From IMG/VR virus record IMGVR_UViG_3300042510_001812: 64,000 bases of DNA; one strand, written 5' to 3'. The DNA comes from an uncultured virus (IMG/VR IMGVR_UViG_3300042510_001812) (taxonomy: Duplodnaviria > Heunggongvirae > Uroviricota > Caudoviricetes). The first letter of the stretch is position 1. Each line of letters begins with the position of its first letter. This document shows positions 7,633-36,191 of the stretch, piece after piece. The position numbers and the translations under genes are program-made. The notes under the pieces are model-generated. The model was not told the DNA's origin and searched no databases. It saw only the letters and a program-made list of their open reading frames with translations.

Positions 7633-7903
7633 TTTTCCCTCCTTAAGGGTGTTTGTTTAGTTGTGTCTATCGTACATCACGGAATACCAAATTTCCAAAA
7701 TCACTTGACACCGTGAGGCAGTAGTTACTCTACATCATGCGATACCAAATTTCCAAAATCGCTAGACACTCACATTACCTATAGAGCAATTTTTTGATTT
7801 TCTTGCAGGGGTGTAACAGAGTTTCCCCGGGGCTATGGCTCTCGATTGTTAGGCTGACCTAACACCTGTTGCCGGGGCTTAAGAAAAATGAATGAACCGG
7901 GAG

Positions 7904-8086
7904 CTAGTTGCAACCACAGCAGGCTGAGCAAAAGACAACTTCGCCATGCTCGGTGCAGTCAGCGCGGCGCGACTCACAAATAATGCAATTTTCTGCAGAC
8001 ATGGCAGCCTGCGCACGACGCTCCGCCTTTTTCTCTCCACGGTTCTTGCCTATCTTGTAGACAACATAGCCACCGAGCAAACCCAT
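7904..8086 (-). CDS. small Cys-rich (zinc-finger-like) protein
   Basis: CIIC...C...H...CSAC. Confidence 0.5.
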   Translation of the reverse strand: MGLLGGYVVYKIGKNRGEKKAERRAQAAMSAENCIICESRRADCTEHGEVVFCSACCGCN

Positions 8087-8380
8087 TAAAGGTCGCGCCT
8101 ACTTTTGTATTTTCTTTCAGCACTGATGTCGTCCCACAATAGAAGGACTGCGCCAGCGACTGCGATGATACAGACACTCATGATGATGATGTAACCAGCC
8201 ACCAGTATCCCCTGAAGCATTAGATACCCGACTTCCTATTAGCCTCGTCTTTTGGCTGTTTGCTTCTTTCTGCCCAACAATTCGGACAGAAGTATGCGTT
8301 ATCTATTACATCAGTAAAGCCATCTGTCGTAGTGTCATCATTGCAATCAAAACACTCAATTCCTATTTGGTTGCTGACGG

Positions 8381-8884
8381 TCATTTCATTTCCCTATCAG
8401 CCTTGGCGTCTCGGACTTCCCATAGACCCTTCTTTATCTTTCTGAAGGTAGGAGACTCCTGAACATACTTCAGGGTGGTCGGGTAGGAGAATCCACACTG
8501 CTCCATGAGTTGTTCCGTGGTGTACTGCTCAAAGTGGTGCTGGTTAGCCCATTTCAGGAAGGCGTCCCACTTGTCAGCACGCTTCTCTGTCTTGATTTCA
8601 TCTACGACAGACTCCTCATCTACCTGAATACCGCAGTATTCGCTTGATACATCCGCGATTACAGCGTCAGGGAGCGAGTAGGAGAGCATGGTACGGATAG
8701 GACTGCCCTTTGCTCCGTCACGATTCCACACTTGGAGAACATGTAACGCCCTTGTGTAGTCACTGATACCTTGGGAGACTTCCCGTGGCACGGCGAACTT
8801 GTCCCCGAACTCGTCAATGGCTTCAGCCCAACGAGAGTTGTGGATATCGGTAATGAATGATTCGGTTATTGACTTTTTCAACAT
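8381..8884 (-). CDS. hypothetical protein (possible C-terminal winged helix)
   Basis: First gene after promoter 8923; SD AAGGA. Confidence 0.7.
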   Translation of the reverse strand: MLKKSITESFITDIHNSRWAEAIDEFGDKFAVPREVSQGISDYTRALHVLQVWNRDGAKGSPIRTMLSYSLPDAVIADVSSEYCGIQVDEESVVDEIKTEKRADKWDAFLKWANQHHFEQYTTEQLMEQCGFSYPTTLKYVQESPTFRKIKKGLWEVRDAKADREMK

Positions 8885-9103
8885 AGTAGATACTTCCTTT
8901 CATCACCTATCCTACAACAGGCGATACCAAATTTCCAAAATGAGGGTCTTCCCCCACCGTCAATAAGGGATGGCCCCCCGGAGGTCGTCCAATTTTTTGA
9001 TTTTTTTGAATATTTCAGCTGTTTTTTGAATACTCTATTTGAATACAACCAGGCCCTTCGGCCGAACAGTGCTACTACCCACTATCCGGCCCGAGCCCCG
9101 GTT

Positions 9104-9382
9104 TTACCCTTTTGTTTTTTCGAAAGATTTGTTCCAGGTGTGCGTGTAGTAGTAACTTGCGGTCGTCTTAAGCTTTCCCTCGATGTGAAATTTAACTCGA
9201 AGGTATTCAATAGCCGCCGCTACCTCTTCATCGGTGAAGTCATTATCTGTGTCGTTGCCCCAGTAACCATTTAAAAAATCGCTTTTTGCTGTATCAACAG
9301 CATCTTCACCGGTTGTGGACAGCGTGTAGTAATTCTCCTCAAGAATCTCTGCAATCTGCGCAAGGACATCCATGTCAATCAT
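9104..9382 (-). CDS. hypothetical protein
   Basis: ORF track; ATGA overlap. Confidence 0.6.
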   Translation of the reverse strand: MIDMDVLAQIAEILEENYYTLSTTGEDAVDTAKSDFLNGYWGNDTDNDFTDEEVAAAIEYLRVKFHIEGKLKTTASYYYTHTWNKSFEKTKG

Positions 9383-9792
9383 TGCTTCTCACTTTTCAAC
9401 ATCGTGTACAGGTCGTCTATGACGCCACCAATACTTTCCTCAACTTCAGTGTTGATGTTCTCTTCAATTGTTTCTTCTATCTTTGCTAATCCAGCAACAA
9501 AACCATCCCAAAGGTCATCAAGCATTTCGTGTTCTTCAGGGGTGAATTTCGGACCCATAGGGATATTCCTTATCTCTACTTCTCCATCGCTCATGAGTTC
9601 CATGAGTTCATCTGGAGCAAGAGCCTGACGACGCCTTTCTGAAAAGATTCGTCCGTCTTTATCAAAAAGTCCAGTACTCATTCTGCGATTAGCGTCCTTG
9701 AATACTGAGATTGCCTCGATGATGAGTGTTATCTCTTCAAGGGTGAATCTTTTTTTACTCATTGAAGCGGTTACTCTTTTTTTCCTAGCCAT
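9379..9792 (-). CDS. hypothetical protein
   Basis: ORF track; coupled operon. Confidence 0.65.
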   Translation of the reverse strand: MARKKRVTASMSKKRFTLEEITLIIEAISVFKDANRRMSTGLFDKDGRIFSERRRQALAPDELMELMSDGEVEIRNIPMGPKFTPEEHEMLDDLWDGFVAGLAKIEETIEENINTEVEESIGGVIDDLYTMLKSEKQ

Positions 9793-10010
9793 TACAAGGT
9801 CCTTCCTGAGAACTCAAACCATTCATCATAGGTCATGCCAATAGTTCCGACAAACTCTGCATTCTCATAGAAGTCCATGATAAAGCCCTCATGAGTGATT
9901 CCAATGTTGATGAACTTGGCGTTGACCTCGTCATAGCCACTCGTAAAAACGGTTACATCCTTGCGTGAATGCTGATTGACATCAAATGTCATCTTCTCAT
10001 TGTCGCTCAC
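9792..10010 (-). CDS. hypothetical protein
   Basis: ORF track; coupled operon. Confidence 0.6.
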   Translation of the reverse strand: MSDNEKMTFDVNQHSRKDVTVFTSGYDEVNAKFINIGITHEGFIMDFYENAEFVGTIGMTYDEWFEFSGRTL

Positions 10011-10414
10011 TTGTCACCTGCCTCGTCCAGTCGTCGCTTGATGTTGACCATCTCAGCCAAGTACTCATCAAATGACATTTGGAATGGGAACTCAATACCA
10101 TCAACAATGTTTGAGAACAGGATGTTTCTGTTTTGCATTTGTTGCCAAAGGTCAAGGAATTTGTAGCCAGCACTCAGGTACTGGTCAAACGCTGTGAGCC
10201 ACTCTTCAGCGATACCTACAGATACCCAAGAGTCCTCACCTTCTACCAAGGAGAGCGAACTGCCGTTATCCCAATCAACACCGATACACATAGCGCCAGC
10301 ATTATCGTACGGCTCCCGTGTAACGGTCCCTAGGTCACCCTTGCGAATCCGTGTGTACGGGTCGTTAGTGCGGACCAATTTGATTCTTTCTCCGACAAGT
10401 GTCTTATTCATCAT
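10007..10414 (-). CDS. DUF4314 domain protein
   Basis: GERIKLVRTNDPY...GDLGTV...VDWDNGSSLSLVEGED. Confidence 0.7.
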   Translation of the reverse strand: MMNKTLVGERIKLVRTNDPYTRIRKGDLGTVTREPYDNAGAMCIGVDWDNGSSLSLVEGEDSWVSVGIAEEWLTAFDQYLSAGYKFLDLWQQMQNRNILFSNIVDGIEFPFQMSFDEYLAEMVNIKRRLDEAGDK

Positions 10415-10472
10415 TCTCTCCTTAGTAGTAGTTGAGTACATCCTAGTACGCCCGATACCAAATTTCCAAAAT

Positions 10473-10691
10473 CTAGATTCCCTCTAGAACATCGGAAGGC
10501 TTCACCTTGAGTGCTCCGCAGAGCAGGATGAGTGACTGAAGGCTCGGTGAGAAGTGTCCGTTTTCAATCCGGTTGATGGTCTTGCGCTCGAGCCCCGCCT
10601 TCTTTGCCAACGCATCTTGCGAGAGTTCTCGCTCAATACGCAACTTACGAAGTCGTGCGCTAACCCGTTGTTCTTTCTTTTGGGTATTCAT
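10473..10691 (-). CDS. XRE-family HTH transcriptional regulator
   Basis: LRKLRIERELSQDALAKKAGLERKTINRIENGHFSPSL. Confidence 0.9.
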   Translation of the reverse strand: MNTQKKEQRVSARLRKLRIERELSQDALAKKAGLERKTINRIENGHFSPSLQSLILLCGALKVKPSDVLEGI

Positions 10692-10721
10692 GTTTTCTCC
10701 TTGTTAGGTGTTTGGTTTATT

Positions 10722-11387
10722 TCAGTTTGCACTGAAAATCTGTTGTGCGGTCATGGCTGTATCCATGCCTTCTGCAATCTCAAATGTGAGAGCGTCTTTC
10801 CATTCCGAATACTTTTCGTCAAAGTTCTCGTCGTCGTCGTCGTATTCAGGTTGCCCCTGCATTTCGTGTTCACCTTCTGAAACAATCTCGCCTTTGTGAA
10901 AGACCATGTACCCAGCAAAGAAATCTGCTTCCTCTGTGAAGTGCATGCCAAACACAAGTTCAGGGAATTGTTCGGAGATGTTCTTCATAAGACCAACCGC
11001 AGGGCTCCAAGCACTTTCCCAATACAGCGTTATTGAGTTGCTGTTCTCGTCAAATGTGTCCTCGTCAAAATCAACACGGCAAGCACCCCATTTGGTGTCC
11101 CAGTTCGCATTCGCCCAGTCGTACCAGTCCTTGTGACCGTACTTAGCGAGATTTGACTCTTGTTGCTTGCGGTGTTCTTCTGCCTTCTCTTCACCAACAT
11201 ATCCTGAAACTGTTTCGTGCAGTTCTGTTGGAATTGGGAATAGTTGGTTCATGTCCCATTCTGTTCTGTTCCATTCAGGAATTGCTTTCCACTCTTCAGT
11301 TTGCTCAATGCGAATAGCCTCAATGAACCGCTTCAGTTCCTTGTTGCTTCCACGAACTTCTCCGTATTGGTTGCACCAGTTAGGCAT
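10722..11387 (-). CDS. YubB/DUF1281-like ferredoxin-fold protein
   Basis: MPNWCN...WYDW..ANWDTKW...ESAWSP motifs. Confidence 0.7.
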   Translation of the reverse strand: MPNWCNQYGEVRGSNKELKRFIEAIRIEQTEEWKAIPEWNRTEWDMNQLFPIPTELHETVSGYVGEEKAEEHRKQQESNLAKYGHKDWYDWANANWDTKWGACRVDFDEDTFDENSNSITLYWESAWSPAVGLMKNISEQFPELVFGMHFTEEADFFAGYMVFHKGEIVSEGEHEMQGQPEYDDDDENFDEKYSEWKDALTFEIAEGMDTAMTAQQIFSAN

Positions 11388-11450
11388 TATTTTCTCCCTT
11401 TGTAGTAGTAGGTGATGTAACTATACAGGTACAGATACCAAATTTCCAAA

Positions 11451-11948
11451 TTAGTACCATGCGTCAGACCCGTTGCATTCATTGGCGACCCAGCGCAACC
11501 ACCAAATGGCGTACTTGACTTCCTTGTCCAAGTTCTCCCCGTCTTTGGTTACGGTTCCCATTTCTGTCATACGGTTTTCCATGTCGTCTGCTAGAGCGAG
11601 GCAGGATGATGGTGACTTATATGTACCATCCTCGTTGTCGCCGTAGAACGAATACTCAAAGTCAGGCAGTTCCAGTGCTTCTATTAGATAGTTGCCGTAC
11701 TTCCCTCTGTACCAGCAGTCCGTTCCGAATATGCCAGTAACGCTTCCGTCTTGCAAATCAGTCTTTGACAGGGAGATGAGGTAGGGGCATTTGCCTTCTG
11801 CCTGCGTTGCTCTGCAGTCAATTCGTTTTTCAGATAATCCTGTTTCTTCGTCAACAATGGCTACGCCGTCTTTGTCAAGAATGTCAACTTTTACAGCAGT
11901 GCCAAGACGCTCGCAGGCGTATCGGTGTGGGATGTTGTCTAAGCCCAT
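11451..11948 (-). CDS. hypothetical protein
   Basis: Follows promoter 11991; AAGGAG SD. Confidence 0.7.
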   Translation of the reverse strand: MGLDNIPHRYACERLGTAVKVDILDKDGVAIVDEETGLSEKRIDCRATQAEGKCPYLISLSKTDLQDGSVTGIFGTDCWYRGKYGNYLIEALELPDFEYSFYGDNEDGTYKSPSSCLALADDMENRMTEMGTVTKDGENLDKEVKYAIWWLRWVANECNGSDAWY

Positions 11949-12093
11949 GTGAACTCCTTAGTAGTAGGTGAGTACCACTATAGCGACCGAGATACCAAAT
12001 TTCCAAACTCTTCCACCACCGTCATGATAATGGGTAATACTTGACTCAATCTGAATTATGTGGTACAGCAGACCGGTGGGTGGCCCGAACCGG

Positions 12094-12107
12094 CGAACAC
12101 ATGTTCG
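12094..12107. promoter_or_regulatory. LexA (SOS/Cheo) box
   Basis: CGAAC-ACAT-GTTCG, intergenic. Confidence 0.7.
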
Positions 12108-12159
12108 CTCAGCCCCGGTGCTCATTGTGGCGGCCCGGCCGCCGGGGCTCTATGGTCAA

Positions 12160-12483
12160 TTATTCGTCGTGAGCAATTACCAGGTTGCCGCCAACGATTT
12201 GCCAGCCGTCGTCATGAGTGTTCCAAACAAACGATAAAGCTTCTTTTATTCCATCTAGGTAATAGAACACATCATCATCTAGAACACCGAAGTCGTCCCA
12301 CTGTAGATAGACAGGGTCTTTACTGAATGATAAGTAGTAATGCAACAATTCACCCTCATCAACCCAGTACACCTGTGCGTCCATGCCAACCAGCACGCCC
12401 TCTTCAGCGATTACATATTTCAGGTAATCCTTCAACAATTTCAGAGTAATAAGCGTCTTTCTAATCGTTGCTCTAATCATCAC
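12160..12483 (-). CDS. hypothetical protein
   Basis: ORF track; overlap with upstream stop. Confidence 0.55.
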   Translation of the reverse strand: MMIRATIRKTLITLKLLKDYLKYVIAEEGVLVGMDAQVYWVDEGELLHYYLSFSKDPVYLQWDDFGVLDDDVFYYLDGIKEALSFVWNTHDDGWQIVGGNLVIAHDE

Positions 12484-12800
12484 GCGCTCACTACATCTAT
12501 GAGTTGCACGAATGAATCCAGTGGCTCTGCTTCATCAGGATACGCCCTCATGGCGTCGTCTAGGAACATTTGGTAAGCACCCAAGTCGTCACCTCTGAAG
12601 TAGTGATTCGCTCCACCATCTCCATAGTTCTCTACACGGCATGCAATAATTCCTTTTCTTAGAATTTGTGCCATCCAAGTAATTCCTCTTGAAGTCTCCA
12701 TCTCTTGGATTACCTTGAAGTCGTACAGGCTTGCGATGTCGTCCACCGCAGGCTCTGTCACAAATAATTTCAGTGAGGGTGGAAGTGTTGAGTAAAGCAT
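12480..12800 (-). CDS. hypothetical protein
   Basis: CAACTACTAACAAGGAG leader. Confidence 0.65.
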   Translation of the reverse strand: MLYSTLPPSLKLFVTEPAVDDIASLYDFKVIQEMETSRGITWMAQILRKGIIACRVENYGDGGANHYFRGDDLGAYQMFLDDAMRAYPDEAEPLDSFVQLIDVVSA

Positions 12801-12837
12801 GATTTCTCCTTGTTAGTAGTTGTTTGAATTCTAGTCG

Positions 12838-13356
12838 TCAGCAGATTTGGAATCCACCGCAGTTCTCTAGGAACTCTGCGAACCGCTTGACATTCTCCAC
12901 ATCAAACGGATAAGCGGACAGCCACGATTCCCTAGTGCCAATTCCATCACAGGCATTGCACCAGCCATGAGTGCGACCAGTAAGAATCTGCGCCTCGGGT
13001 GAGAGTTCTTTAGTAGGCATTCCCATTTCCACGCCGACCTCATCATTGCGAATGCCAGTGCACTCACAGAGGTTGCATGCTTCACGGGGAAGCGAGGAAC
13101 GCCATTCGTTGTAGGTCTGTGCGTACTTTTCTACCGTGCCATTTTCAAGGTCTATCTTGAGTGACCAAGCCAATGATTCAGCCAGTGCGTCGTCTAGCCC
13201 GTCACCGTCGTTTGAGTGCCACGATTCGCAACCGCTAGCAATGTCGTCATAGTTGGTGCAGATAAAGTCTGCCAGTGGACGCCACCACCACACATTGTTG
13301 CGGAAGTATTCGCCCTTTTCATTCTTTGGCTTTACGCCATAGACATCCATACCCAT
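12838..13356 (-). CDS. hypothetical protein with DnaJ-like CxxCxGxG motifs
   Basis: CNLCECTG and CNACDGIG; follows promoter 13407. Confidence 0.7.
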   Translation of the reverse strand: MGMDVYGVKPKNEKGEYFRNNVWWWRPLADFICTNYDDIASGCESWHSNDGDGLDDALAESLAWSLKIDLENGTVEKYAQTYNEWRSSLPREACNLCECTGIRNDEVGVEMGMPTKELSPEAQILTGRTHGWCNACDGIGTRESWLSAYPFDVENVKRFAEFLENCGGFQIC

Positions 13357-13449
13357 TTTCTTGCTCCTTGTTAGTAGTAGTTAGGTGACTGAATCTTACA
13401 ATACTGAATACCAAATTTCCAAAATCGAGAAGAGCCCCGCGCTCTCCCT

Positions 13450-13917
13450 TTACGCCTCAACCTTGTCAAACGGGCACTCGGCTACTTGACCGAATACAGC
13501 CTCGTACAGGTCACGCCCGTCTTGCCATTCACTCCAGTCTCCATCTGACGAGATACGGACACAAGAGCCGTAGATTTCTTTCGCCCGAATGAGTATCGCA
13601 GTAACTACAGCGTCATACGGTTTCTGTGCAGTCTTGCAAAAATCAAAGATTTCAGGCTCATCTTTACGCCATTCAACTTGAGTTGGCAGTGCCTTCCAAG
13701 TAAAGGTTTCGTGAGACATATCATCTATGCCGTTGAAACTGAACTCTCCCTCTGTGAACTGTGGTTGAGTTTCGTTCTCTCCACTCCAGTCGCCAAGTTT
13801 TATGCCAATGCTCTGTGCGTGTTCGCAAATAGCCTTAGCGTCTAGTGCGAGTTTGCCGTACATATAGGCAGACCCAGCGTTCTTTCGTGGTCGGTAGTTG
13901 TAATGCGTGTAACCCAT
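13450..13917 (-). CDS. conserved phage hypothetical protein
   Basis: MGYTHY...FCKTAQKPYD...ISSDG; follows promoter variant 13962. Confidence 0.7.
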   Translation of the reverse strand: MGYTHYNYRPRKNAGSAYMYGKLALDAKAICEHAQSIGIKLGDWSGENETQPQFTEGEFSFNGIDDMSHETFTWKALPTQVEWRKDEPEIFDFCKTAQKPYDAVVTAILIRAKEIYGSCVRISSDGDWSEWQDGRDLYEAVFGQVAECPFDKVEA

Positions 13918-13965
13918 AGTTAGTGCCTTTCGTTAGTAGGTAGTAGTACCTTAGCAGACCCAATA

Positions 13966-14169
13966 TCAGATTTCCAATTTTTTCTGTTCGTAGACCATGA
14001 ACTCACCATCACTGTCACGGCTGATTCCAGTCACCCACATAGAGCGACCAATCTGCCCGTAGTCCTCTATTGCGTTCTGAACTTCCTCTACGGCAACGCC
14101 ACAGCACTCGCTGTCGTTTTCAGCTTGCACATCAAGCGTCACCATTACTGTTACTCGGTAGGTGTTCAT
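13966..14169 (-). CDS. hypothetical protein
   Basis: ORF track; TAATG coupling. Confidence 0.55.
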   Translation of the reverse strand: MNTYRVTVMVTLDVQAENDSECCGVAVEEVQNAIEDYGQIGRSMWVTGISRDSDGEFMVYEQKKLEI

Positions 14170-14438
14170 TAGTAGTTACTCCAATCGTAGTTGTCGTTTT
14201 TGTGTGCGATTTCCTCGGAACATACTCCGATTACTTTTAGCGTTTCGCCGTCAATGACACGGCTACATTTCTCACAAAGATAGGTATCGCCGTCCCATTC
14301 TCCGTTGAGTGTTGGCGAGACAATCTCTCCAGTCTTTAGGCAAGAGTAAAAGCCCTCGTAGTTTGGTTGGTTGCCACATAGACACTGAAACCAATCAGTA
14401 GTTCCACCTATGTACTCCTCGTACAGTCGGTTATTCAT
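14169..14438 (-). CDS. Cys-rich hypothetical protein
   Basis: CLCG...CEKC; GAGG SD. Confidence 0.6.
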   Translation of the reverse strand: MNNRLYEEYIGGTTDWFQCLCGNQPNYEGFYSCLKTGEIVSPTLNGEWDGDTYLCEKCSRVIDGETLKVIGVCSEEIAHKNDNYDWSNY

Positions 14439-14676
14439 ACTCAACCTCTGTTCCATAGTCGTGTATGCATTCGCTGTCGTACTCCTCTGCGTGGTCTTCC
14501 ATTGTGCGGAAGTGGCAATTCTCGTTTATCCACTCATAGCGAGCGTCAGCGTCCCACTCATTCCACTCAAACGGAAGTTCCATTCCTTGTGGCATGTCGT
14601 AGTACTTGTAACGGGTGTACTTGACAAGCATGTGCTCATCAACGGTAACGGCAAAGCGTGTAGGTGTAGTAGTCAT
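14431..14676 (-). CDS. hypothetical protein, probably leaderless
   Basis: ATG lies 6 nt after the -10 box of promoter 14697. Confidence 0.6.
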   Translation of the reverse strand: MTTTPTRFAVTVDEHMLVKYTRYKYYDMPQGMELPFEWNEWDADARYEWINENCHFRTMEDHAEEYDSECIHDYGTEVEYE

Positions 14677-15013
14677 GAGTACATAGTAGTACGCTGGATA
14701 CCAAATTTCCAAAGTGCTTTCCGCCACCGTCAAGATAATAGAGGCTTATGGATATCTGTTGGCGATTTTTTTGCTCGCTCCGATTATTGCAAATATTTTT
14801 ATTTTCTTGCAACTTTCTGGGAATTTTCTGGCTAGCCCCGCACGGCGTTCTGGCCGCACCGAGGCCGGGGCTCTTGGGGAAAATAGCTACCTTGTTATTT
14901 AGGTATCCATCAGATAACCGCTATTACCACAACCTGGGCAGTGTTCGGTATCTAATCTAATTTCTAATTGCTCTTCAGTGCTTACTGTTTCGCACCAATT
15001 ACAGATAATCGTT

Positions 15014-15232
15014 TCAGGCGTTTTCATTAGTTGCCCACCGATTTTCGCTGTCATAGAAGCAAGTGTTACATACGAAGCCGTCTAGGTCGTTATCCCAGAC
15101 TGGCTCACTCCCAAAGGTGCGTACGGTCATCTCCATTCCGCATGAGTCGCAATTAGCCCTATCGCCACGAATATGAATTACGCCGTGTACGAGTGGCAGT
15201 GAGTTGATTTTTTCGATATATGCCTCGCTCAT
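15014..15232 (-). CDS. small zinc-finger-like protein
   Basis: CDSC...CNTC. Confidence 0.55.
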   Translation of the reverse strand: MSEAYIEKINSLPLVHGVIHIRGDRANCDSCGMEMTVRTFGSEPVWDNDLDGFVCNTCFYDSENRWATNENA

Positions 15233-15237
15233 GTCGG

Positions 15238-15507
15238 TCACTCCCAAGCCCTATTGAGCAGTATCCCTGCGAATGGGTTGGGGTACTTCACCTCGTCATT
15301 TAGCCAACGCTCACTATCGGAGTGTTGAGTTTCGCAGTCTCGGAATGTCTCAGTGGCGAACGCCTTGTCATCTTTCATGAGGCGCACCAGCAATTTACCA
15401 GTGCCGTCTTCCCAGACATCTAGTTGGTAGGTAGCGTCAATGCCACCGAACGGACCAGCTTGCTCACCGAATACGGATAATTTATGAGTCATCGTTACAG
15501 TGCTCAT
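15238..15507 (-). CDS. hypothetical protein
   Basis: ORF track; TAATG coupling. Confidence 0.6.
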   Translation of the reverse strand: MSTVTMTHKLSVFGEQAGPFGGIDATYQLDVWEDGTGKLLVRLMKDDKAFATETFRDCETQHSDSERWLNDEVKYPNPFAGILLNRAWE

Positions 15508-15797
15508 TACTTACCACCCCTTTCGGAGTAGTAAGCAACGGCTTCGGTCAGTGTGGTGCAGTAGTCACCGCTATAGCGCTCCCAGCCACTAGGGCGAGCC
15601 ACAACGGTCCATACGGCGAACTTGTGGAATGGATTAGTTGGGTTATAGCAGACCGTAATCCATGAAGCGTACGAGTCACCAATTTCACGGTCATTCTTTT
15701 TCGTGAGTGCCAAGACGGTTATTTCAGTGGCGATTACTTCGCCAAGTTTTAGTTCAGCGAATGTTAGGTCCACTGAATTGTCGGTTAGTAGGTACAA
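15507..15797 (-). CDS. hypothetical protein, paralog of 20470-20751
   Basis: TTG start after AAGGGA; shares YASW..C...KF.VWTV.A...SG.YC...RGGK. Confidence 0.7.
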   Translation of the reverse strand: MYLLTDNSVDLTFAELKLGEVIATEITVLALTKKNDREIGDSYASWITVCYNPTNPFHKFAVWTVVARPSGWERYSGDYCTTLTEAVAYYSERGGK

Positions 15798-15988
15798 GGT
15801 ATTCCCTTTCGTAGTAGTTGGGATAGACACTACAACACCGAATACCAAATTTCCAAAATTATTGAGAGCCCCGCAGCACTAGATGCTGGGGTGTGCGGCG
15901 GGGCTTTTCGCACGCATAAAGGAAGCCCTGCCCACCAGTTACGGCAGACAGGGCTTCGGTTGTTCGTAGGGGTGAAAGGGGTAAAGCC

Positions 15989-16429
15989 CTAGAACAAATC
16001 CATTACTGCTTCGGCAAGTGCGCCACGAGCATTACCGTCATCGGTAATTGTCTCATCAGGCGTATCAGAGAAGCGCATAACGCTGGCACAACCGTCTTTG
16101 CTGGCGAACACCACTAGGCGTACACGCCTGCGTTCAGGGTGTTGCGATGGTGGTACTTGGTCATCATCGCTTTGCCCCTCAACAATAGGTGAAGCCCAAC
16201 CGCAAGTAAGTACTGCGATGTAATCGCTTACCTTTGCTACGGCTCGGCTGTCATCGCTATTTAGCAAGTCATAAACATCGCCGTGTTCACCTGCTAGAAC
16301 AAGTGCCACTCTGCCGTCATCGGTTTCGTTGATAGAAAAGAACATTGCCTGCTTTAGGTCAAAGTCCCCGTTTAGTTCGTCAGATATTGCCTTTTCGGCT
16401 GTCTCTGCCTTATGTAGTAAATCGCTCAT
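15989..16429 (-). CDS. conserved hypothetical protein
   Basis: GWA...PPSQHPERRRVRL motif; follows promoter 16487. Confidence 0.7.
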   Translation of the reverse strand: MSDLLHKAETAEKAISDELNGDFDLKQAMFFSINETDDGRVALVLAGEHGDVYDLLNSDDSRAVAKVSDYIAVLTCGWASPIVEGQSDDDQVPPSQHPERRRVRLVVFASKDGCASVMRFSDTPDETITDDGNARGALAEAVMDLF

Positions 16430-16703
16430 CGGTAGTTCCTTTCGGTAGTAGTTGATTAGATAAGCACCACTCACATTACTACCCCCGATACCAAATTTCC
16501 AAAATACGGGTAGCCCATACAAGAGCCCCGCTGAACTAATCTCTTGGGGTGAACGAACTAGAGCAAGCGAGAAGCCGGGGCTTATCAAAAAGAATTGCCG
16601 AGTTTGATATCGAGTTGTACAACCTTTGGGTACAGATAAGAGCCGTAGAGGAAAGTAACGCCGAGTTCACTGCCGACAATTTACGCAAGAGTTTCAGGGT
16701 AAT

Positions 16704-16742
16704 AAAAAGAGAGGGCTAGAGATTTCTCTCTAACCCCCTCTC
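16704..16742 (-). terminator. intrinsic terminator
   Basis: GC hairpin plus U tract on minus strand after 16758-17156. Confidence 0.7.
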
Positions 16743-16757
16743 GGTAGGTGGATAGGA

Positions 16758-17156
16758 CTAGACCGCTTCGGCGGTTTCGGTAACTGCGCCTTCGGCAAGG
16801 TCACGGATAACGATACGGGTGTAAGCCGTTGGCTTCACACACGCAGTTTCCACTTCCTCACTGATATCGCCAGCCTTACGAGCCTTATCAAAAGCCTTCG
16901 GCTCAACGGCAGTCTTGGTGACTGCGCCGAACACTTTGGCATTGACAAGTTCTGAAAGTGTTGCGACATCAAAGTTGCGACGAATTGCCTCAACAAGTTG
17001 GACACACTTGTCGTTCGCTTCCCAAGAGTTCACGCCTGCTTCGGCGTACGCTTCGGAAAGCAATTCCTTCGCAACAGCGACGGCTTTCTCGGCAGAAGCG
17101 AGAGCCTCAACGGCACTCACATACTGGCGAGCAACGGCAGAAAGTTGCTTAGACAT
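16758..17156 (-). CDS. hypothetical Ala-rich protein
   Basis: Single-gene cassette: promoter 17210, AAGGGGG SD, terminator. Confidence 0.75.
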   Translation of the reverse strand: MSKQLSAVARQYVSAVEALASAEKAVAVAKELLSEAYAEAGVNSWEANDKCVQLVEAIRRNFDVATLSELVNAKVFGAVTKTAVEPKAFDKARKAGDISEEVETACVKPTAYTRIVIRDLAEGAVTETAEAV

Positions 17157-26621: not shown

Positions 26622-26711
26622 TACTTATCCCCTTTCTAAGGGCTTGTTGTTGTCTCTATCGTAGGGCAACGGATACCAAATTTCAAAATCCACAAATAGC
26701 CCCGGTGGGTG

Positions 26712-27044: not shown

Positions 27045-27049
27045 TGTGT

Positions 27050-27508: not shown

Positions 27509-27660
27509 TGCTCTCCCTTTCAGTAGGTAACTAAATCATATCCGAGCCAATACCAAATTTCAACGACCCCAAGGCGGGGCTATTTCGAGTTAGCGTGCAA
27601 TTTGGAAATCTGGTATCACGGATAGTACGATTTACTTGTCCACGAGAAAAGGGGAAAGAA

Positions 27661-28336: not shown

Positions 28337-28654
28337 GTGACATCAGTAGCAGTGAGAGTAAGCGCACCACCGAGAGGCGATTTGCCTTGTACTGGCAGGC
28401 AAGATTTGTTTTATGGCAAGTACGCCGAAAGACCTGAAGCACGATTGCGCCGTGAAGAAAAAGCCAAAAAAGTTTGCGCTACTTGTTCGCAGGCGACTAC
28501 CTGCCGTGATTACGCCCGTAGTAATGGCGAAGTGTTTGGTATTTGGGGCGGAGAAACAGAAATGGAGAGATATAGCGCAGGATTTATGTTGTCAGTACCA
28601 CCCCACCTGTCACGGAGAGTTGTTACTATGAAAGAAAGATATGGGAACTTATAA
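28337..28654 (+). CDS. whiB: WhiB family transcriptional regulator
   Basis: C...AKKVCATC....C.DYA...GIWGG.TE.ER. Confidence 0.9.
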   Translation: MTSVAVRVSAPPRGDLPCTGRQDLFYGKYAERPEARLRREEKAKKVCATCSQATTCRDYARSNGEVFGIWGGETEMERYSAGFMLSVPPHLSRRVVTMKERYGNL

Positions 28655-29420: not shown

Positions 29421-31343
29421 GTGCGACTTTACCTTGACCACGACTTATTAGCCCTTGACTTTCCGTATGACCCAGCACAAGTTGCTGAAGTCAAGTCAAT
29501 AGCCGGGGCTACATGGGACAAGGTGGACAAACTTTGGAAAGCACCCGTAGCCTCAATTGACGAGGTGCGAGCATTTGCTATGAAGCATGAGTTTCAGATA
29601 ACAGACGAAGTGCTTAGGTTTACAGCCCCAAAGAGAGCGTCACGAAAAGGCGTTTATCTCAAAGGCGACTGGACTTACATCCAATTCCCTTACGACAAGG
29701 TTGTGCTCAAAGCAGTAAAGCAAATAGCAGGGGTTACTTGGGATAACAAAGAGATGGCATGGAGAGCGCCACTCACCTCAACATCTGAAGCAATTGCGTG
29801 GGCTAACTCGTTTGGGGTGCTTGTATCGCCCGAAGTACACGGTGTATCTGCCTCGATAACCAAGAAACTAGATGAACTAAAGGAAGCCTCACGCTCAACT
29901 GACGCTGATATAGAAGTGCCTTCACTACAAGGAACGTTATTGCCTTACCAAAGAGCAGGCGTGGAGTATGCGTCTAAAGCCCGTAGAAGTTTTATCGCTG
30001 ACGAGATGGGACTTGGAAAGACGATACAAGCGATAGCGACACTGGAATATTCGTCAAAAGATAGCGAAGTGTACCCAGCAGTAATTGTCTGCCCCCCTTC
30101 ACTTGTACTCAACTGGAAGTCAGAGTGGAACAGATGGTTGCCTAACAGGAGGGTTGCCGTTGTGACCAACCGTAGAGACATGCCAGAGCCCCGTTCGTAT
30201 GATGTGCTCGTTGTCGGCTACTCAAACATCTCTCACTGGGAAAAGCAACTACTTGCGCATAACTCTTATGTATTTGATGAGAGTCACTACGCAAAAAGCC
30301 CAACGGCACAACGTACTAAGTCGGCTATAAAGATGGCAAAGAGCGCACCTAAACACGGGATAGTCCTATGCCTCACTGGGACACCCGTAACGAATAGACC
30401 AGCAGAGTACGCCAGCCAACTAGACATAATCGGGAAACTGAAAGAGTTTGGTGGGTTGTGGGGATTTTATAGAAGGTATTGTTCAGCCTTCCAAGATAGG
30501 TTCGGTCAATGGAATATCAGCGGTCACTCGCACCTTGATGAACTAAACGACAGGCTTCGTGGTACTTGCTATATAAGACGAACTAAGTCGCAGGTACTTA
30601 CAGAACTCCCACCGGTTATACACAGCACCCTTGTTGTTCAGGGAACTGATGCGGGGCTCAAGGAGTATCGTAAGGCAGAACAAGACATAATAAAGTACAT
30701 AACCGACAGAGCAAAAGAGATAGCAATAGAACTCGGGGAGAGCCCGTACTCGGCAGCCGTTGTGGCGAGAATAAAAGCAGAAAGCAACGAACACCTCGTC
30801 AAACTGTCAGTACTTAGACGGCTTGCTGCGAAAGCCAAAATGCCAATGGTTGAGGAGTGGGTGCAGTCACGCATTGATGATGGCAAGAAAGTCGTAATCG
30901 CAGCGCACCATAGAGACGTTGTAGATGAACTCGCACGAAAGTTTGGCAACCTTCGCATTCAGGGCGGCATGTCGGTTGAGGAAGTGGAAGCACAAAAGGC
31001 ACGCTTTCAGAACGAACCCGTAGAGACAGCGCCCGTCATTGTGTTGTCTATTCAGGCAGCCAAGACTGGTCACACACTCACAGCCTCACAAGACATACTT
31101 TTCGTAGAACTTCCGTACACGCCAGCAGACCTAGACCAAACTTATTCACGCCTTCATCGCATTGGTCAGACTGGAAGCGTTACGACTACTTACATGCTGG
31201 TTGACGGGACTATTGACGAGGAAATCTATGCGCTCATAGAAAAGAAGCGCAAGGTAGTGAACGCTTCGGTTGAGGGGGGAGAGTTCGCAGCAGGTGGTAA
31301 CGCAACGCAGTTGGTACTTGACTTGCTCAACAGACATCGATAG
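29421..31343 (+). CDS. SNF2-family helicase with N-terminal HARP-like repeats (SMARCAL1-like)
   Basis: ADEMGLGKT, DESH, LTGTP, RLHRIGQ; two N-terminal FPYD...I.G.TWD...W.AP repeats. Confidence 0.9.
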   Translation: MRLYLDHDLLALDFPYDPAQVAEVKSIAGATWDKVDKLWKAPVASIDEVRAFAMKHEFQITDEVLRFTAPKRASRKGVYLKGDWTYIQFPYDKVVLKAVKQIAGVTWDNKEMAWRAPLTSTSEAIAWANSFGVLVSPEVHGVSASITKKLDELKEASRSTDADIEVPSLQGTLLPYQRAGVEYASKARRSFIADEMGLGKTIQAIATLEYSSKDSEVYPAVIVCPPSLVLNWKSEWNRWLPNRRVAVVTNRRDMPEPRSYDVLVVGYSNISHWEKQLLAHNSYVFDESHYAKSPTAQRTKSAIKMAKSAPKHGIVLCLTGTPVTNRPAEYASQLDIIGKLKEFGGLWGFYRRYCSAFQDRFGQWNISGHSHLDELNDRLRGTCYIRRTKSQVLTELPPVIHSTLVVQGTDAGLKEYRKAEQDIIKYITDRAKEIAIELGESPYSAAVVARIKAESNEHLVKLSVLRRLAAKAKMPMVEEWVQSRIDDGKKVVIAAHHRDVVDELARKFGNLRIQGGMSVEEVEAQKARFQNEPVETAPVIVLSIQAAKTGHTLTASQDILFVELPYTPADLDQTYSRLHRIGQTGSVTTTYMLVDGTIDEEIYALIEKKRKVVNASVEGGEFAAGGNATQLVLDLLNRHR

Positions 31344-31393
31344 CCCCGGCCTATCGTTTTAGAAATTTGGTATTTGGCTTGCTAAGCTTGCGT

Positions 31394-31627: not shown

Positions 31628-32050
31628 TTACTCGGCTTCTTTGGTTGGGACTCTGCCCATCAGTTCGTCAGCAATTAGTTTTGCGTACTTTCTGCGCAGT
31701 TTCCAGACTTTTTGGTTCATTTCAGCCATTGCGTCAGTCGTTCGTGCCTTCTTTATGCTGTCGCTGTCAAACACGCCGTACTTCTTGAACAAGATGTCGT
31801 CAATGTCATTGTTTTCTATCATTATGTCCGTAATCCAATGGCCCCGCTTGTCAATGCTAAGCAGAAGTTCGCAAAGACCTTCAAATCCGAACTCGTTATA
31901 GACACGATTGGTAACTAAGTCACAGAAATGCGCACGATACATCGTTTCTGCTTCAGCGGTGTGGCTCATAAACTCACTCAGCCATACGGCAAGCTCTTCT
32001 TTTGACGGAATATCGCCGTCTTCACTGTCAAACTCAAAGTCGTCTTCCAT
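31628..32050 (-). CDS. hypothetical acidic protein
   Basis: ORF track. Confidence 0.7.
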   Translation of the reverse strand: MEDDFEFDSEDGDIPSKEELAVWLSEFMSHTAEAETMYRAHFCDLVTNRVYNEFGFEGLCELLLSIDKRGHWITDIMIENNDIDDILFKKYGVFDSDSIKKARTTDAMAEMNQKVWKLRRKYAKLIADELMGRVPTKEAE

Positions 32051-32106: not shown

Positions 32107-33132
32107 TCAAGCCAGCGACAGAATAACTTCCTGCGCTAATACTTTCTTTTGCGTAACCCACGAGTTGTTGTTCATTGAGGCAAGCGCCCGTTCATCAGCC
32201 TTAGCGTCACGATAATGGTCTAGGTACTCGGCGATTGCGTTGTAAGCACTCCACCCGTTGTACCCGTAGCCACCTGCATTTCGTTCGTTGTCGTACACTC
32301 CACGAACCAATGCCACTACTCCGTCACGATTTTTCTTTTGTCTCTCCGTACCGTTCATTTCGTTCGGGAATACCTTGTCAAGTATCGTGGCGAGTTGCGC
32401 ACTTCGCGGTGGAACGTTGATAGCAAGCAACCGGTTGGCTGTAAGTTGGAACGACTTAGCCCACTCTGTTGATATTTCTAGGACTTTTTGCGCTTCCTCA
32501 ATGGCGTTATCAGCGTTACGAGTGTGTCGTGCCGTGAATACCCTACGGGCAGACGATTGACCTGCGATTACCGTGTTTTTGCATACTGCTCGTATCGAGG
32601 TATTAGCAAAGGTGATAGCCGTCTTACCGTCGTGACCATTGCGAACCAGTAGGTAACGGTCTATCTTGTCATTGATACCGGTTGGGTCTATGACGAGTTG
32701 CCCCAAGTCAAGGGAACTAAAGAACTCTCTGCCTTCGTCAAGTACGCCACAAGTGTCTACAACTGCGTCACCCTTAGAAGCGCCGACTATTGCAAGTGCG
32801 TAGTCCAAGCACTCACGGTTTTGCTGTACGACATAGCGTGTGCCTACCGTAGCCAGCCCGTCAAAGGTGCCATCAGGGTTCACTCTCACGGTTGCTCGGC
32901 TGTCCTCAATAACGATTGGCGTGCCATCAGGGTTTCTGATTAGGTTGCCATCAGTATCAACGACTGCGACTTTAGTAGTGACGACATCAAAGTCTGCTTG
33001 CGCCGCCTGAAGCATTGCCTCTGCTGTCTGTAGTCCCTTCATAGGAACTCCTAGACGATGCCACGGCACTTCACGGTCTGCGTAAGCCATTTTCGCTACG
33101 CCCTTAGTGTCTACCTCTAACCCGTGTGCCAT
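32107..33132 (-). CDS. DUF932 domain protein
   Basis: MAHG...VPWHRLG...RY..QN...NGHDG...IRAVCKNT...RHT...W.AYNA..EY.DH. Confidence 0.85.
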   Translation of the reverse strand: MAHGLEVDTKGVAKMAYADREVPWHRLGVPMKGLQTAEAMLQAAQADFDVVTTKVAVVDTDGNLIRNPDGTPIVIEDSRATVRVNPDGTFDGLATVGTRYVVQQNRECLDYALAIVGASKGDAVVDTCGVLDEGREFFSSLDLGQLVIDPTGINDKIDRYLLVRNGHDGKTAITFANTSIRAVCKNTVIAGQSSARRVFTARHTRNADNAIEEAQKVLEISTEWAKSFQLTANRLLAINVPPRSAQLATILDKVFPNEMNGTERQKKNRDGVVALVRGVYDNERNAGGYGYNGWSAYNAIAEYLDHYRDAKADERALASMNNNSWVTQKKVLAQEVILSLA

Positions 33133-33232: not shown

Positions 33233-33511
33233 TCACTTCGCTTTGTCGTCTACGAATTCGGTATAAGCCTTCACCGCTTCATCGGGTGCGCCGTCTACTA
33301 GGTACTGATACATAACGCCTGCGAGGTCACGCCACTTACCGTCACTAAGTATCTTTTCAGTAATTGTGTAGCCTTCGTGTTCGGTTGCCCAACTAATTGA
33401 GTGGGGCTGTAACTTGTGTAGGTGCGCTACTGCTTCGTAGTAAGTGCTGAAACTCTCAAGCACTGCGCCGTCTCTCGCTACTTCGTAACTAATCTGCGCT
33501 TCTGTGTTCAC
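33233..33511 (-). CDS. hypothetical protein
   Basis: GTGA overlap. Confidence 0.55.
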   Translation of the reverse strand: MNTEAQISYEVARDGAVLESFSTYYEAVAHLHKLQPHSISWATEHEGYTITEKILSDGKWRDLAGVMYQYLVDGAPDEAVKAYTEFVDDKAK

Positions 33512-33780
33512 TTGTCAAACCTCACTTCTTGGGATACTTGGATAACTTGTCCGTACTTGGCTACTAGGTCATCAGTCGCTTTCAGTGTGTTGCCGTGACA
33601 CCACTTGACTGCTAAGCCACTTAGGGTATCGCCTTCCTGAACGATTACTCGGTCAATATCACAACGATAATTTTCATCACCTCGCATTGAGATAATCATT
33701 GCGATAATCGTCACGAGGAATACGAGTGGGAGTGTAATCAGGTCACGCTTGCTTGGTCGGTTTGTGTAGTGGTTGTTCAT
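33508..33780 (-). CDS. membrane-anchored LysM domain protein, paralog of 26712-27044
   Basis: TM; VQEGDTLSGLA..C.GNT...D.LV..YG. Confidence 0.7.
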   Translation of the reverse strand: MNNHYTNRPSKRDLITLPLVFLVTIIAMIISMRGDENYRCDIDRVIVQEGDTLSGLAVKWCHGNTLKATDDLVAKYGQVIQVSQEVRFDK

Positions 33781-33808: not shown

Positions 33809-33837
33809 ACATTAGGGTAGTTTGTGACAAAGGTCAA
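33809..33837 (-). promoter_or_regulatory. canonical sigma70/SigA-type promoter
   Basis: TTGACC-N17-TAATGT; same AATCCTTGAC context as 23765. Confidence 0.65.
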
Positions 33838-34780: not shown

Positions 34781-34837
34781 AGTAACTCTCTCTCGGTACG
34801 GGCTACCCGTAAGGCTACCCGTGGCATTGGAATTTTT

Positions 34838-35194
34838 TCACTTTTTTTCGCTTATCCACTCACCACCACTAGCGAACACTGTCTCTCCCTCATTGGTGAA
34901 ACTCCAAGCGTAATCGCAACAAGGCTTCTGCTGATAGGGGCTAGGGTGTGCGCCTTTCTCTAATGACTTCGCTAGTAGTGGAAATGTCTCTAGTAACTTG
35001 ACGATACAAGCGTGGCACATATTCCACGATTTAGGTTCACTATCAGACATTAGAAACTCAAGGTTGTCGGTGAAACCACCATAGAAACCAAACGCTTCAT
35101 AGGGCAAGCACCAACCACTGTCTAGTGTTGTTGCTGTCGGGTGACTTGTCTTGCTCACTTCGCCACAAGCGTCACACTTCACTGCGTTGCTCAT
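34838..35194 (-). CDS. Cys-rich hypothetical protein
   Basis: CDAC...GFYGGFTD...CHAC. Confidence 0.65.
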   Translation of the reverse strand: MSNAVKCDACGEVSKTSHPTATTLDSGWCLPYEAFGFYGGFTDNLEFLMSDSEPKSWNMCHACIVKLLETFPLLAKSLEKGAHPSPYQQKPCCDYAWSFTNEGETVFASGGEWISEKK

Positions 35195-35484
35195 AGTGCG
35201 TACTCTCCACGCTTACGGCGATAGTGCGATACGAATTCGTCACTGTCATAGTCACAAGGTGACCACACTATGTCGGCTTCACTAAAGGTATGGTCAAGGT
35301 GCAGACGGACTATCACATAGTCAAAGGCGTCGTATGCGTTGTCAGCGATGAACCTGATGCAACCTACGAGGGTAGAGCGATACTCAAAGTGTTCAGGTAA
35401 GTCATAGCGACACATACTCCAAGCGTCACCATACGAGGGACACTCAACCACTGCGTACCTGCGTCGGTCTTTCTCGATAGTCAT
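35191..35484 (-). CDS. hypothetical protein, probably leaderless
   Basis: ATG lies 6 nt after TACACT of promoter 35505. Confidence 0.6.
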   Translation of the reverse strand: MTIEKDRRRYAVVECPSYGDAWSMCRYDLPEHFEYRSTLVGCIRFIADNAYDAFDYVIVRLHLDHTFSEADIVWSPCDYDSDEFVSHYRRKRGEYAL

Positions 35485-35632
35485 AGGGCAAGTGTACCTA
35501 GTGTGATACCAAATTTCCAAAGACGGACTACCCGTATGTCACCCGTGCGCCTTGCGTCAGTCATACTCTCTCAACTTCAGTGCGACATAGATGAGGGCGA
35601 CACCTGCTAGGCACATCAACTCAAGCGCTGCC

Positions 35633-35821
35633 TCACCGCTCATCGTCACTTCCTAGCGTGAACTTAGGCATAACGAATAGCGTGTTGCCCATGCGGTAGG
35701 CGTTACGGCTTGCGTTGTACTGTGCGTCAGGGAATAGACGAACTAAGTCGATGGCTGTCAGTGGCGTGTCGCTTAGGTGAACGACATGACGTAGGTGCTT
35801 CACTGCGACTACCTCAACCAA
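35633..35821 (-). CDS. hypothetical protein
   Basis: ORF track. Confidence 0.45.
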   Translation of the reverse strand: MVEVVAVKHLRHVVHLSDTPLTAIDLVRLFPDAQYNASRNAYRMGNTLFVMPKFTLGSDDER

Positions 35822-36003
35822 GTTGGGTCGAGCTTTTTTGTGACCTCTAACGAATACATTGCTTCACGCTCTGACACGACTACTTCGTGAGAGTGCTTTG
35901 CTTTGTCACGAATGTTCTGTGCGACTTCATTCGCTTTCTGCTCTGTCTCGTAGAACCCTGCGACGTCGTTTCTGTTAGGTCGAAGAATGGTTACTTGATA
36001 CAT
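35809..36003 (-). CDS. hypothetical protein
   Basis: Follows promoter 36045; AAGGGG SD. Confidence 0.6.
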   Translation of the reverse strand: MYQVTILRPNRNDVAGFYETEQKANEVAQNIRDKAKHSHEVVVSEREAMYSLEVTKKLDPTWLR

Positions 36004-36191
36004 CGTTATCCCCTTTCATGAGATACGGTAAGCCTACTACATCGGATACCAGATTTCCAAAGCGCGTAACGCGTTGCGAATATGGTACGAAGTCGACTTC
36101 CAGAGTGTCATGCGGGGCTCTTTCCGGCACTACACCACACCGGTGGGCAGTCGTATTCCAAATTTTTAAGCTCGCCGTATTTCAACTAGAT

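Follow-up and report, generated by a model that had tools for sequence, protein, structure and literature searches.

A repeated early-type promoter element in a freshwater myovirus and a co-varying element upstream of a sigma gene in its putative hosts

Which factor reads a promoter that one phage carries in 33 near-identical copies? This question is raised by a stretch of 64,000 nucleotides (the window) that forms part of the virus record IMGVR_UViG_3300042510_001812 (labelled G000; 160,449 bp with a 127-bp terminal repeat). Between the small genes of the window, a 16-nt block recurs at a fixed distance of 8 nt from a TAnnnT hexamer. From their sequence and placement, the best reading of these elements is that they are early-gene promoters of an actinophage-like freshwater myovirus of about 160 kb.

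PHROGs and Pfam searches identified a myovirus gene set in G000 (sheath, tube, baseplate, large terminase and major capsid protein). The nearest relatives of the major capsid protein in a phage collection were phages of Gordonia, Brevibacterium and Streptomyces (35-53% identity), and a megablast search of that collection gave no match to G000. The sequence was recovered in lake-water metagenome runs. Identity with the Microcystis phage Ma-LMM01 was rejected, because the capsid kin of G000 are actinophages and because the promoters and the early region differ from those given in the available part of the published account (PMC5780444). The gene calls used here are crude and our own.

Geometry and conservation of the element

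When up to three mismatches were allowed, TTGGAAATTTGGTATC matched the window 34 times. Dinucleotide shuffles gave a mean of 0.60 and a maximum of 4 matches, and none of 100 shuffles reached 34. In 33 of the 34 matches, the block was followed by exactly 8 nt and then by TAnnnT, the set spanning 7669-36063. Nineteen of these blocks were exact, ten had one mismatch, two had two and two had three. All 33 copies were of the intergenic type, lying between small genes and oriented toward the next gene; the minus strand carries 31 of them and the plus strand the other two (27599-27631 and 31356-31388). Genome-wide, all 29 matches with at most one mismatch fell within genome positions 78,864-107,241, inside the window (control, 0). 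The count of 33 copies given in the preliminary description was thus confirmed against shuffles.

The element can be written as (at)T-TTGGAAATTTGGTATC-N8-TAnnnT. Block positions 1, 3-6, 9 and 12-14 were the same in 33/33 copies, as were T, A and T of the hexamer, and a T at -1 was present in 30/33. The conserved part reaches up to three bases further upstream (a-t-T) and totals 17-19 bp, in keeping with the 18 bp described earlier. The gap described as 8 free nt is free only roughly, as it shows a weak preference for GTGTnG. In the phage, 18 nt separate the hexamer from a -35-like TTGGAA (4/6 of the consensus) on its upstream side. The position counts led us to reject an extended -10 at TGGTATC, and likewise sigma-54-, SigB- or SigF-type boxes. 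A generic scan for sigma-70 promoters and terminators was uninformative (19 promoter-like sites against 23.6 expected).

Several features support the promoter reading well. First, the distance to the hexamer is fixed in all 33 copies. In addition, a Shine-Dalgarno sequence and a start codon follow the hexamer, at a median of 30 nt, in 31/33 copies. In the remaining two (14683-14715 and 35491-35523), an ATG 6 nt after the hexamer opens a long open reading frame (ORF). A leaderless ATG in this position works only with an RNA start about 7 nt after the hexamer, which would place the beginning of the mRNA there. Finally, the two classical promoters noticed earlier in equivalent slots were found as described, TTGACA-N17-TAATTT at 23737-23765 and TTGACC-N17-TAATGT at 33809-33837, both on the minus strand. 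They share the leader and Shine-Dalgarno type of the motif copies, and the second drives 33508-33780, 33233-33511 and a DUF932 gene (32107-33132, minus strand).

We compared these promoters with those of relatives in IMG/VR, which show 80-88% identity in aligned DNA. G001 and G002 have kept the G000 block, with T in place of the final C in almost every copy. Across 23 orthologous promoter pairs, identity was 91-100% within the block, except at the last position (26%). The sister phage G448, which for most proteins is nearer to G000 than G001 is, carries 30 copies of TTGTAAATCTGATATC, none of the G000 type, and one single copy of type B (the types are those of the host variants described below). 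Among 20 pairs from G000 and G448, three block positions had switched in 20/20, 16/20 and 19/20 pairs, respectively. The identity per position was 0% at idx3, 20% at idx8, 5% at idx11 and 75% at idx15, and 95-100% at the other block positions. The surroundings were less alike, with 53% identity in the upstream flank, 57% in the N8 gap and 70-75% in the hexamer interior. The T, A and T of the hexamer were kept in 100% of both the 20 and the 23 ortholog pairs.

A search with the SNF2 helicase extended the comparison to 56 related loci (98-57% protein identity). Ten lineage-specific 16-nt blocks were found, all at N8-TAnnnT; they include TTGTAAATCTGATATC, TTGGTTTCTGATATnG, TTTGTATCTGTCCTGT, TAGACATCTGTTGTAG, TTGTCGGnTnnGGGTG, GTTGTTTTTACCnCTT and TTGTCGG-N4-GGGTGGG, and others. 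A TTG or the near-consensus TAGACA is present in 7/10 of them. In the complete distant relative G450, 46 copies were counted within 31 kb, and 20 shuffles gave 0-1. Judged from these alignments, the block is under purifying selection at every position and has changed its specificity in concert. Recombination alone is an insufficient explanation, since homogenisation would have extended to the gap and the hexamer interior. The proposal that the block is read by more than a housekeeping sigma is supported by the contrast between the block (95-100%) and its flanks (about 53-57%), by the concerted three-position switch, and by the private block of each lineage.

Some related sequences showed further features. 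The viral loci L223 and L224 carry, besides a block at N8-TAnnnT, an additional repeat, GCTATCTTTATT, about 20 times in 12 kb. Contigs from other samples (runs X22 and X23), ending at window positions 15834 and 21666, have type C and intermediate type B blocks at orthologous promoters. Three runs tried as possible RNA gave no transcript starts or ends and look like DNA or relatives.

The element upstream of a bacterial sigma gene

We scanned one genome per species, 185,579 species in all, for TGGAAATTTGGTATY-N8-TANNNT and obtained 49 single matches, at an estimated chance level of about 35. One of the 49 lay in the metagenome-assembled genome G011, titled acIV actinobacterium, on a contig (L160, G011:C36) with no phage similarity by blastn or tblastx. 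The site is intergenic, 110 nt upstream of a gene of the sigma-70/extracytoplasmic function (ECF) type and divergent from a Nudix/NrtR-like gene. The sigma matched TIGR02937 with 47.3 bits (cut-off 42.9) over residues 109-263; it fits the sigma70-ECF model with regions 2 and 4 only. Its Pfam region 4 matches were below the gathering score, and no subfamily was assignable.

The orthologous sigma genes of three further species, G029, G047 and G040 (86-91% identity), have the element at the same place and spacing. The elements of this set read CTGGAAATTTGGTATT-N8-TACCAT, CCGGAAATCTAGTATT-N8-TACCCT and CTGTAAATCTGATATT-N8-TACTAT. Among metagenome contigs, four carry type A, and type B was found at 81% and 62% sigma identity. 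At 62% the gap and the flanks are quite different, which argues that the element is old and selected in bacteria. The part kept in hosts is block positions 2-7 (GGAAAT or GTAAAT). In the host copies, the TT of the -35-like TTG is absent (the bases given are TT, CT, CC, CT, CT and CG). With the block kept and the -35 TTG missing, they look factor-dependent, as activator-dependent promoters do.

The host variants fall into types A, B and C (GGAAATTTGGTAT, GGAAATCTGATAT and GTAAATCTGATAT), and the same types occur in phages. G000, G001, G002 and G006 are type A phages. G448 and its close relatives are type C, and their T, C and A at the three switched positions are found in the putative host G040 as well. 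Type B occurs in phages as single copies in G000 (13948-13980) and G448, plus a relative's contig. The copy at 31356-31388 shares its 8-nt gap with the host sites, with 8/8 positions identical to L273-L276 and 7/8 to G011, and a similar gap is retained in the orthologous copies of G001 and G448. This shared gap points to a direct kinship in sequence between that copy and the host element.

Each host genome holds one site, even when the pattern was loosened to TGKAAAT-N16-TANNNT (4-5 host genomes). In an order-wide sample of 401 genomes only G011 had an exact match, with 19 one-mismatch matches against 10 in the control. The sigma is fast-evolving and patchy, present in 13/58 genomes of the genus at 91% to 31% identity; a family-level search found it in 2/151 genomes. 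In sigma orthologs at 31-48% identity the element is missing, and a conserved TGnTATACT promoter adjoins the start codon; one such ortholog retains the gap TGGCTTGT but neither block nor hexamer. The residues flanking the invariant RRETVSR recognition helix of the sigma are GQ...KL in type A hosts and GK...N/S/I L in type B/C hosts, a co-variation that rests on one or two evolutionary events.

The sigma neighbourhood comprises Nudix/NrtR-like, ARPP-1 (PF20208), DSPc, HD_4, deacetylase-like and TY-Chap1 genes, and PADLOC found no known defence system beside the sigma gene. A neighbouring gene of 270 aa was rejected as the specific factor, as it is present in 34/58 genomes. At the start of the Nudix/NrtR-like gene (L160 11880-11900) there is a perfect inverted repeat, ATAAACG-CA-CGTTTAT, that is conserved across the genus; from its sequence and position it is probably that regulator's operator.

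Literature searches, mainly of listings, turned up no class of phage promoters with a counterpart at a host sigma gene. On the sequences compared here, a cis-element that co-varies between phage and putative host, with a single host site before a sigma gene, appears to be a new result.

Candidate readers of the block

We tentatively read the elements as early promoters for host RNA polymerase whose block would dock a specificity factor shared with the host, and we lean slightly toward a reader encoded by the host and exploited by the phage. The hexamer TAnnnT would be read by host RNA polymerase carrying a primary-type sigma. The block of 16-19 bp (about -39 to -21) would dock a sequence-specific factor that licenses or boosts initiation, by the logic of a class II or MotA-type activator or of a sigma-region-4 adaptor. 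This reader would be a host activator that controls the sigma gene or, less likely, the sigma itself. As a terminator-promoter-leader cassette, the promoter would have spread in many copies through the early region, and every copy would have been re-tuned when the phage changed its host. The core is probably read by a primary-type sigma, to judge from the invariance of TAnnnT, from the TTG that the phage retains and from the presence of classical promoters in equivalent slots; if so, the block would need a second reader.

Several observations favour a host-encoded reader. First, phage and host share the specificity, and their variants correspond. Second, the sister phages differ in the block and in the tail fibres (the tail-fibre genes of G448 and G000 are 34-63% identical), yet the helix-turn-helix (HTH) protein, both WhiB-like proteins and the MarR-like protein are 92-97% identical between them despite the switched block. 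Third, early promoters need their reader at injection. In addition, the host gap sequence looks ancestral in bacteria, and the N8 of copy 31356-31388, which is that of the host site, is also found in a host species' homologous intergenic region without the block. Finally, searches of the phage proteins with PHROGs (195 proteins) and Pfam (120 proteins) yielded no sigma factor, RNA polymerase, MotA or AsiA. A host-sigma profile run against all six-frame ORFs of G000 and the fetched relatives detected no sigma, its sole match being the HTH of ORF 45049-45570. PDB sequence searches with three giant proteins (2184, 1496 and 3563 aa) detected no RNA polymerase. The preliminary description held that a phage factor probably binds at the block. 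Given these negative searches, the near-identity of the recognisable DNA-binding proteins and the co-varying element in putative hosts, the reader need not be a phage protein.

The logic of the element is closest to that of T4 middle promoters, which are read by MotA/AsiA in the available part of the published account (PMC5780444). As far as that account goes, both combine a TAnnnT -10 with a conserved box near -30 at a fixed distance (here -36 to -21, followed by N8). They differ in that MotA/AsiA homologs were not found here, a -35-like TTG is kept where the box of a MotA-dependent promoter replaces the -35, the genes are of the early type and not of the middle class, and the box differs by lineage.

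Other points weigh against a host-encoded reader. It would be odd for a host factor to serve 33 phage promoters and yet have one chromosomal target, and private lineage-specific blocks are typical of phage-encoded systems. The L216-type block was absent from 46 relatives of G011, and none of the lineage blocks was found upstream of the sigma orthologs at 31-48% identity. The clade of freshwater acIV actinobacteria that carries the element probably contains the phage hosts, but this assignment draws only on the shared element, the WhiB genes and the GC content (about 47% in the phage and 48.9% in the host contig). Moreover, the sister phages are mosaic, and many small early proteins with no assigned function are more diverged in G448 than in G001 (e.g. 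20470-20751, 17354-17785, 12480-12800 and 10007-10414), which keeps a phage-encoded reader in contention.

We consider such a phage-encoded reader possible, though less probable than a host factor. It would be made from the classical promoters or through basal firing, or be injected, and would form a private system with its block; the host copy would then be an infection alarm that switches on an alternative sigma. A private block per lineage is what is seen with phage polymerases and activators, and the many diverged small early proteins could supply the reader. Exactly one site per host genome, host copies that look factor-dependent without the -35-like TT, and a sigma gene of patchy occurrence among conflict-flavoured genes would suit the alarm. 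However, no candidate protein was identified, and the recognisable DNA-binding proteins do not track the switch from A to C. That switch coincides with replaced tail fibres, and changing 30 promoters to dodge one host site is a poor strategy. The lack of a known defence system beside the sigma gene also speaks against it. As for the alarm itself, it is conceivable, with some doubt, that the host promoter is silent until the phage reader arrives and then starts a sigma-controlled response from a conflict-gene island, types A, B and C chasing each other. In the mirror image, which is just as conceivable, the phage may have copied a host promoter and live off a host factor, and the host may escape by re-tuning the factor and its site.

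It is unlikely that the ECF-like sigma itself reads the whole promoter, with an autoregulatory host copy and phage early genes that use core enzyme plus this sigma; among a host factor, a phage factor and the sigma, the sigma is the least likely reader. Autoregulated ECF sigma promoters place a site ahead of their own sigma gene, and the conserved GGAAAT/GTAAAT resembles ECF -35 elements (GGAAC, TGnAAC, GGAAAT). The only host site does precede an ECF-like sigma gene, the recognition-helix flanks differ between type A and type B/C hosts, and the sigma evolves fast within the genus. In contrast, the invariant TAnnnT is a primary-type signature. An ECF-type -10 (CGT/GTT, 16-17 nt after an AAC-type -35) had no conserved example, the bases before TA varying in hosts (TT, CT, TT). 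No other host promoter with the -35/-10 pair, and so no regulon, was seen in the 4-5 host genomes scanned. The orthologs at 31-48% identity use a TGnTATACT proximal promoter in place of the site, the co-variation of the helix amounts to one or two events, and the phage keeps its TTG and has classical promoters in equivalent slots.

The block could alternatively be an operator, with the primary sigma firing alone and a phage repressor at -29 to -21 shutting the early genes off together, as the preliminary description had also allowed; this we regard as improbable. The TTG-N18-TAnnnT core could work alone, a Cro/CI-type HTH gene lies inside the promoter region, and the classical promoters in two slots would escape the shut-off. 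Yet the host keeps the block and loses the -35-like TT, which would be senseless for a site that serves repression only. The HTH gene was found in 2/5 relatives' records searched, yet all of them have blocks, and it does not track the specificity switch. The block is also asymmetric. Stoperators of cluster A mycobacteriophages are asymmetric too, 13-bp sites present in tens of copies in one orientation and bound by a repressor, and they are not tied to a -10. The present sites resemble them in number, asymmetry and mostly single orientation, but all 33 are tied to TAnnnT at a fixed 8 nt and thus do not form a promoter-independent operator array.

It is more improbable still that the block has no dedicated reader and that its conservation and concerted change arose by recombination or gene conversion among cassettes. 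This proposal takes its model from the promoter-early stem-loop (PeSL) cassettes of the T4-type phages phi1 and RB49, repeated strong early promoters with stem-loops, as set out in the available part of that report (PMC2839356). Within that part, the architecture is the closest to that found here, with many near-identical early promoters, a plastic region of small ORFans, and sister phages that differ by swapped cassette genes. In G448, many small genes are missing or replaced between conserved promoters, and 21/33 copies are preceded, at a distance of up to 70 nt, by G/C-rich arms (CGGGGCT or GCCCCG). However, the enrichment of upstream hairpins is modest (mean -13.4 against -11.2 kcal/mol in the control, p=0.015), the N8 gap (57%) and the hexamer interior (70-75%) stay variable, and a conserved host copy that co-varies at the same three positions is left unexplained. 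PeSL promoters, as described there, follow the host sigma-70 consensus with no extra reader, whereas the present element has a lineage-specific block, a concerted switch and a host counterpart. The element is therefore a member of neither the PeSL nor the MotA class.

Long, rigid, lineage-specific promoters and giant uncharacterised head-module proteins (3563 and 2184 aa) could hint at an unrecognised phage-encoded or virion-borne RNA polymerase, to which we give very little credence because Pfam, PHROGs and PDB sequence searches showed no RNA polymerase signature, both TTG and TAnnnT suit the host enzyme, and the element serves the host as well. In T7-group pairs of RNA polymerase and promoter, the promoters are likewise long and rigid, and specificity differs by a few positions changed in all copies; here no phage RNA polymerase was found, and the -10 geometry is of the host type. 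The 2184-aa protein was rejected as a hidden virion polymerase, as its DxDGD-like motif is unconserved in the family and its residues 1000-1560 are predicted to fold like mono-ADP-ribosyltransferases.

Copies along the window, neighbouring genes and implications

Individual copies were assigned by the block match plus N8-TAnnnT, and "exact" denotes exact TTGGAAATTTGGTATC; all lie on the minus strand unless stated. The exact copies are followed by TAATGT (16473-16505, 20321-20353, 25074-25106 and 25535-25567), TATAGT (11420-11452, 11977-12009 and 17196-17228), TAGGAT (8909-8941 and 10440-10472), TAGAGT (7727-7759 and 19365-19397), TACTAT (14683-14715 and 23580-23612), TAGGGT (18771-18803), TAAGAT (20791-20823), TAATAT (21589-21621), TAAAGT (22144-22176), TAGTAT (22754-22786) and TACACT (35491-35523). 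The copy at 10440-10472 drives 10007-10414, and that at 11420-11452 drives 10722-11387 and then the Cro/CI-type HTH gene (10473-10691, minus strand; PF01381, 1e-14; 95.8% identical in G448). At 14683-14715 and 35491-35523 the leaderless ATG follows, and the spacing of the latter is kept in G448.

The other copies depart from the exact block. A tandem pair, kept in G002 and G007, consists of the proximal copy attTTGGAAATTTGGTATT-N8-TACGAT (7669-7701), which drives an AAA ATPase gene (6907-7632, minus strand), and of the exact distal copy at 7727-7759, 58 nt upstream. Blocks ending in TATT precede TAAGAT (13393-13425) and TAGTGT (15827-15859). The type B variant TTGGAAATCTGATATT with TAAGGT (13948-13980) is of the same type as the host sites L277 and L280. 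TTGGAAATCTGGTATC occurs with TAATGT (17826-17858, among the ortholog pairs compared) and with TAGGCT (36031-36063), the first of the block of copies in the direction of transcription. Further variants are TTGGAAATTTAGTATC with TAATAT (18501-18533), which drives a DUF3846 gene (18067-18471, minus strand), ATGGAAATTTGGTATC with TAGTGT (19707-19739), TTGGAAACTTAGTATC with TAAACT (24207-24239), TTAGAAATTTGGTATC with TAAATT (24539-24571), and TTTGAAATTTGGTATC with TACGAT (26658-26690), which is also readable as TTGAAA-N17.

The copy GTTGAAATTTGGTATT with TATGAT (27535-27567) stands back-to-back, 31 nt apart, with the plus-strand copy TTGGAAATCTGGTATC with TACGAT (27599-27631). The latter drives a plus-strand operon of two small Zn-ribbon-like ORFs, a WhiB-like gene (28337-28654; PF02467, 1.4e-12) and the SNF2 helicase gene (29421-31343). 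The WhiB-like protein, under a motif promoter, is a candidate for a sigma-A-region-4 adaptor. Just after the helicase gene lies the second plus-strand copy, TTAGAAATTTGGTATT-tggcttgc-TAAGCT (31356-31388). No clear ORF lies behind it in G000, where it points, in antisense direction, into the 3' end of gene 31628-32050; a small, different ORF follows its orthologs in G001 and G448. A decayed plus-strand copy, CTGGAAATCTGATATC, with CGTGCA at the place of the hexamer (4389-4404), lies upstream of the plus-strand ORF 4452-4754 and is kept in G002 and G007.

The leaders of the 33 copies have further common traits. A C/A-rich motif, (C)AACTACTAC, is present in 13/33 leaders against 26/400 control windows (e.g. 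10405-10440 and 17160-17195), and ribosome sites of the GAAAGG/AAGGAG type follow in 27/33 leaders. A second repeat, GACGGTGG(C/T)GGAA, occurs with at most one mismatch in 10 copies within 1469-17862, all on the minus strand and mostly after TTAT/ATAT. Four of these lie 5-10 nt upstream of motif promoters (8949, 12011, 14719 and 17862), and others lie directly ahead of start codons (3290 and 4468).

The majority of the small genes in 7600-36100 had no family match in PHROGs or Pfam. ESM Atlas searches with two conserved early proteins returned only unnamed clusters. G000 codes for two WhiB-like proteins, one Cro/CI-type HTH protein, one MarR-like protein, four tRNAs and many 2-oxoglutarate (2OG)-Fe(II) oxygenases; an Rfam scan of the window returned four tRNAs only. 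ORF 45049-45570 (minus strand) extends upstream of its called start and has a sigma-region-4-like HTH at its N-terminus (E 0.0012 against the host sigma profile); the remainder, in our judgement from its sequence, resembles a coiled coil of the small-terminase type. The 3563-aa protein (G000:C1:33055-43746; L011:1055-11746) contains head-protease-like, UvrD/helicase and ArdC-type anti-restriction parts.

The 2184-aa head-module protein is encoded by a gene whose final part lies at window 63012-64000 on the minus strand. For residues 1000-1560 (G000:C1:48355-50037; L011:16355-18037), a fold like that of C3/iota-type mono-ADP-ribosyltransferases was predicted (mean predicted local distance difference test score, pLDDT, 75; Foldseek E 2.7e-5). 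An HExxH motif is found elsewhere in the protein family. T4 early promoters are accompanied by the injected ADP-ribosyltransferase Alt in the available part of the account cited above (PMC5780444). To that extent the two systems are alike, in early promoters richer in information than those of the host and in a giant head-module protein with a predicted ADP-ribosyltransferase-like fold. On this structural prediction, the 2184-aa protein may be an injected enzyme in the style of Alt.

The elements described here bear on early transcription in phages of the abundant uncultured freshwater actinobacteria. They form a promoter class with precise boundaries, in which nature has supplied specificity variants through three single-base switches, each replicated 20-30 times. 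They also provide a sequence-based host link for a family of 160-kb metagenomic phages, and a rare case in which a phage cis-element co-varies with a putative host cis-element. The questions of who reads phage early promoters, and of whether hosts sense or starve them, thereby become testable. If the relation is true, either outcome would be new: a phage that depends on a host alternative-sigma circuit, or a host alarm wired to a phage promoter code.

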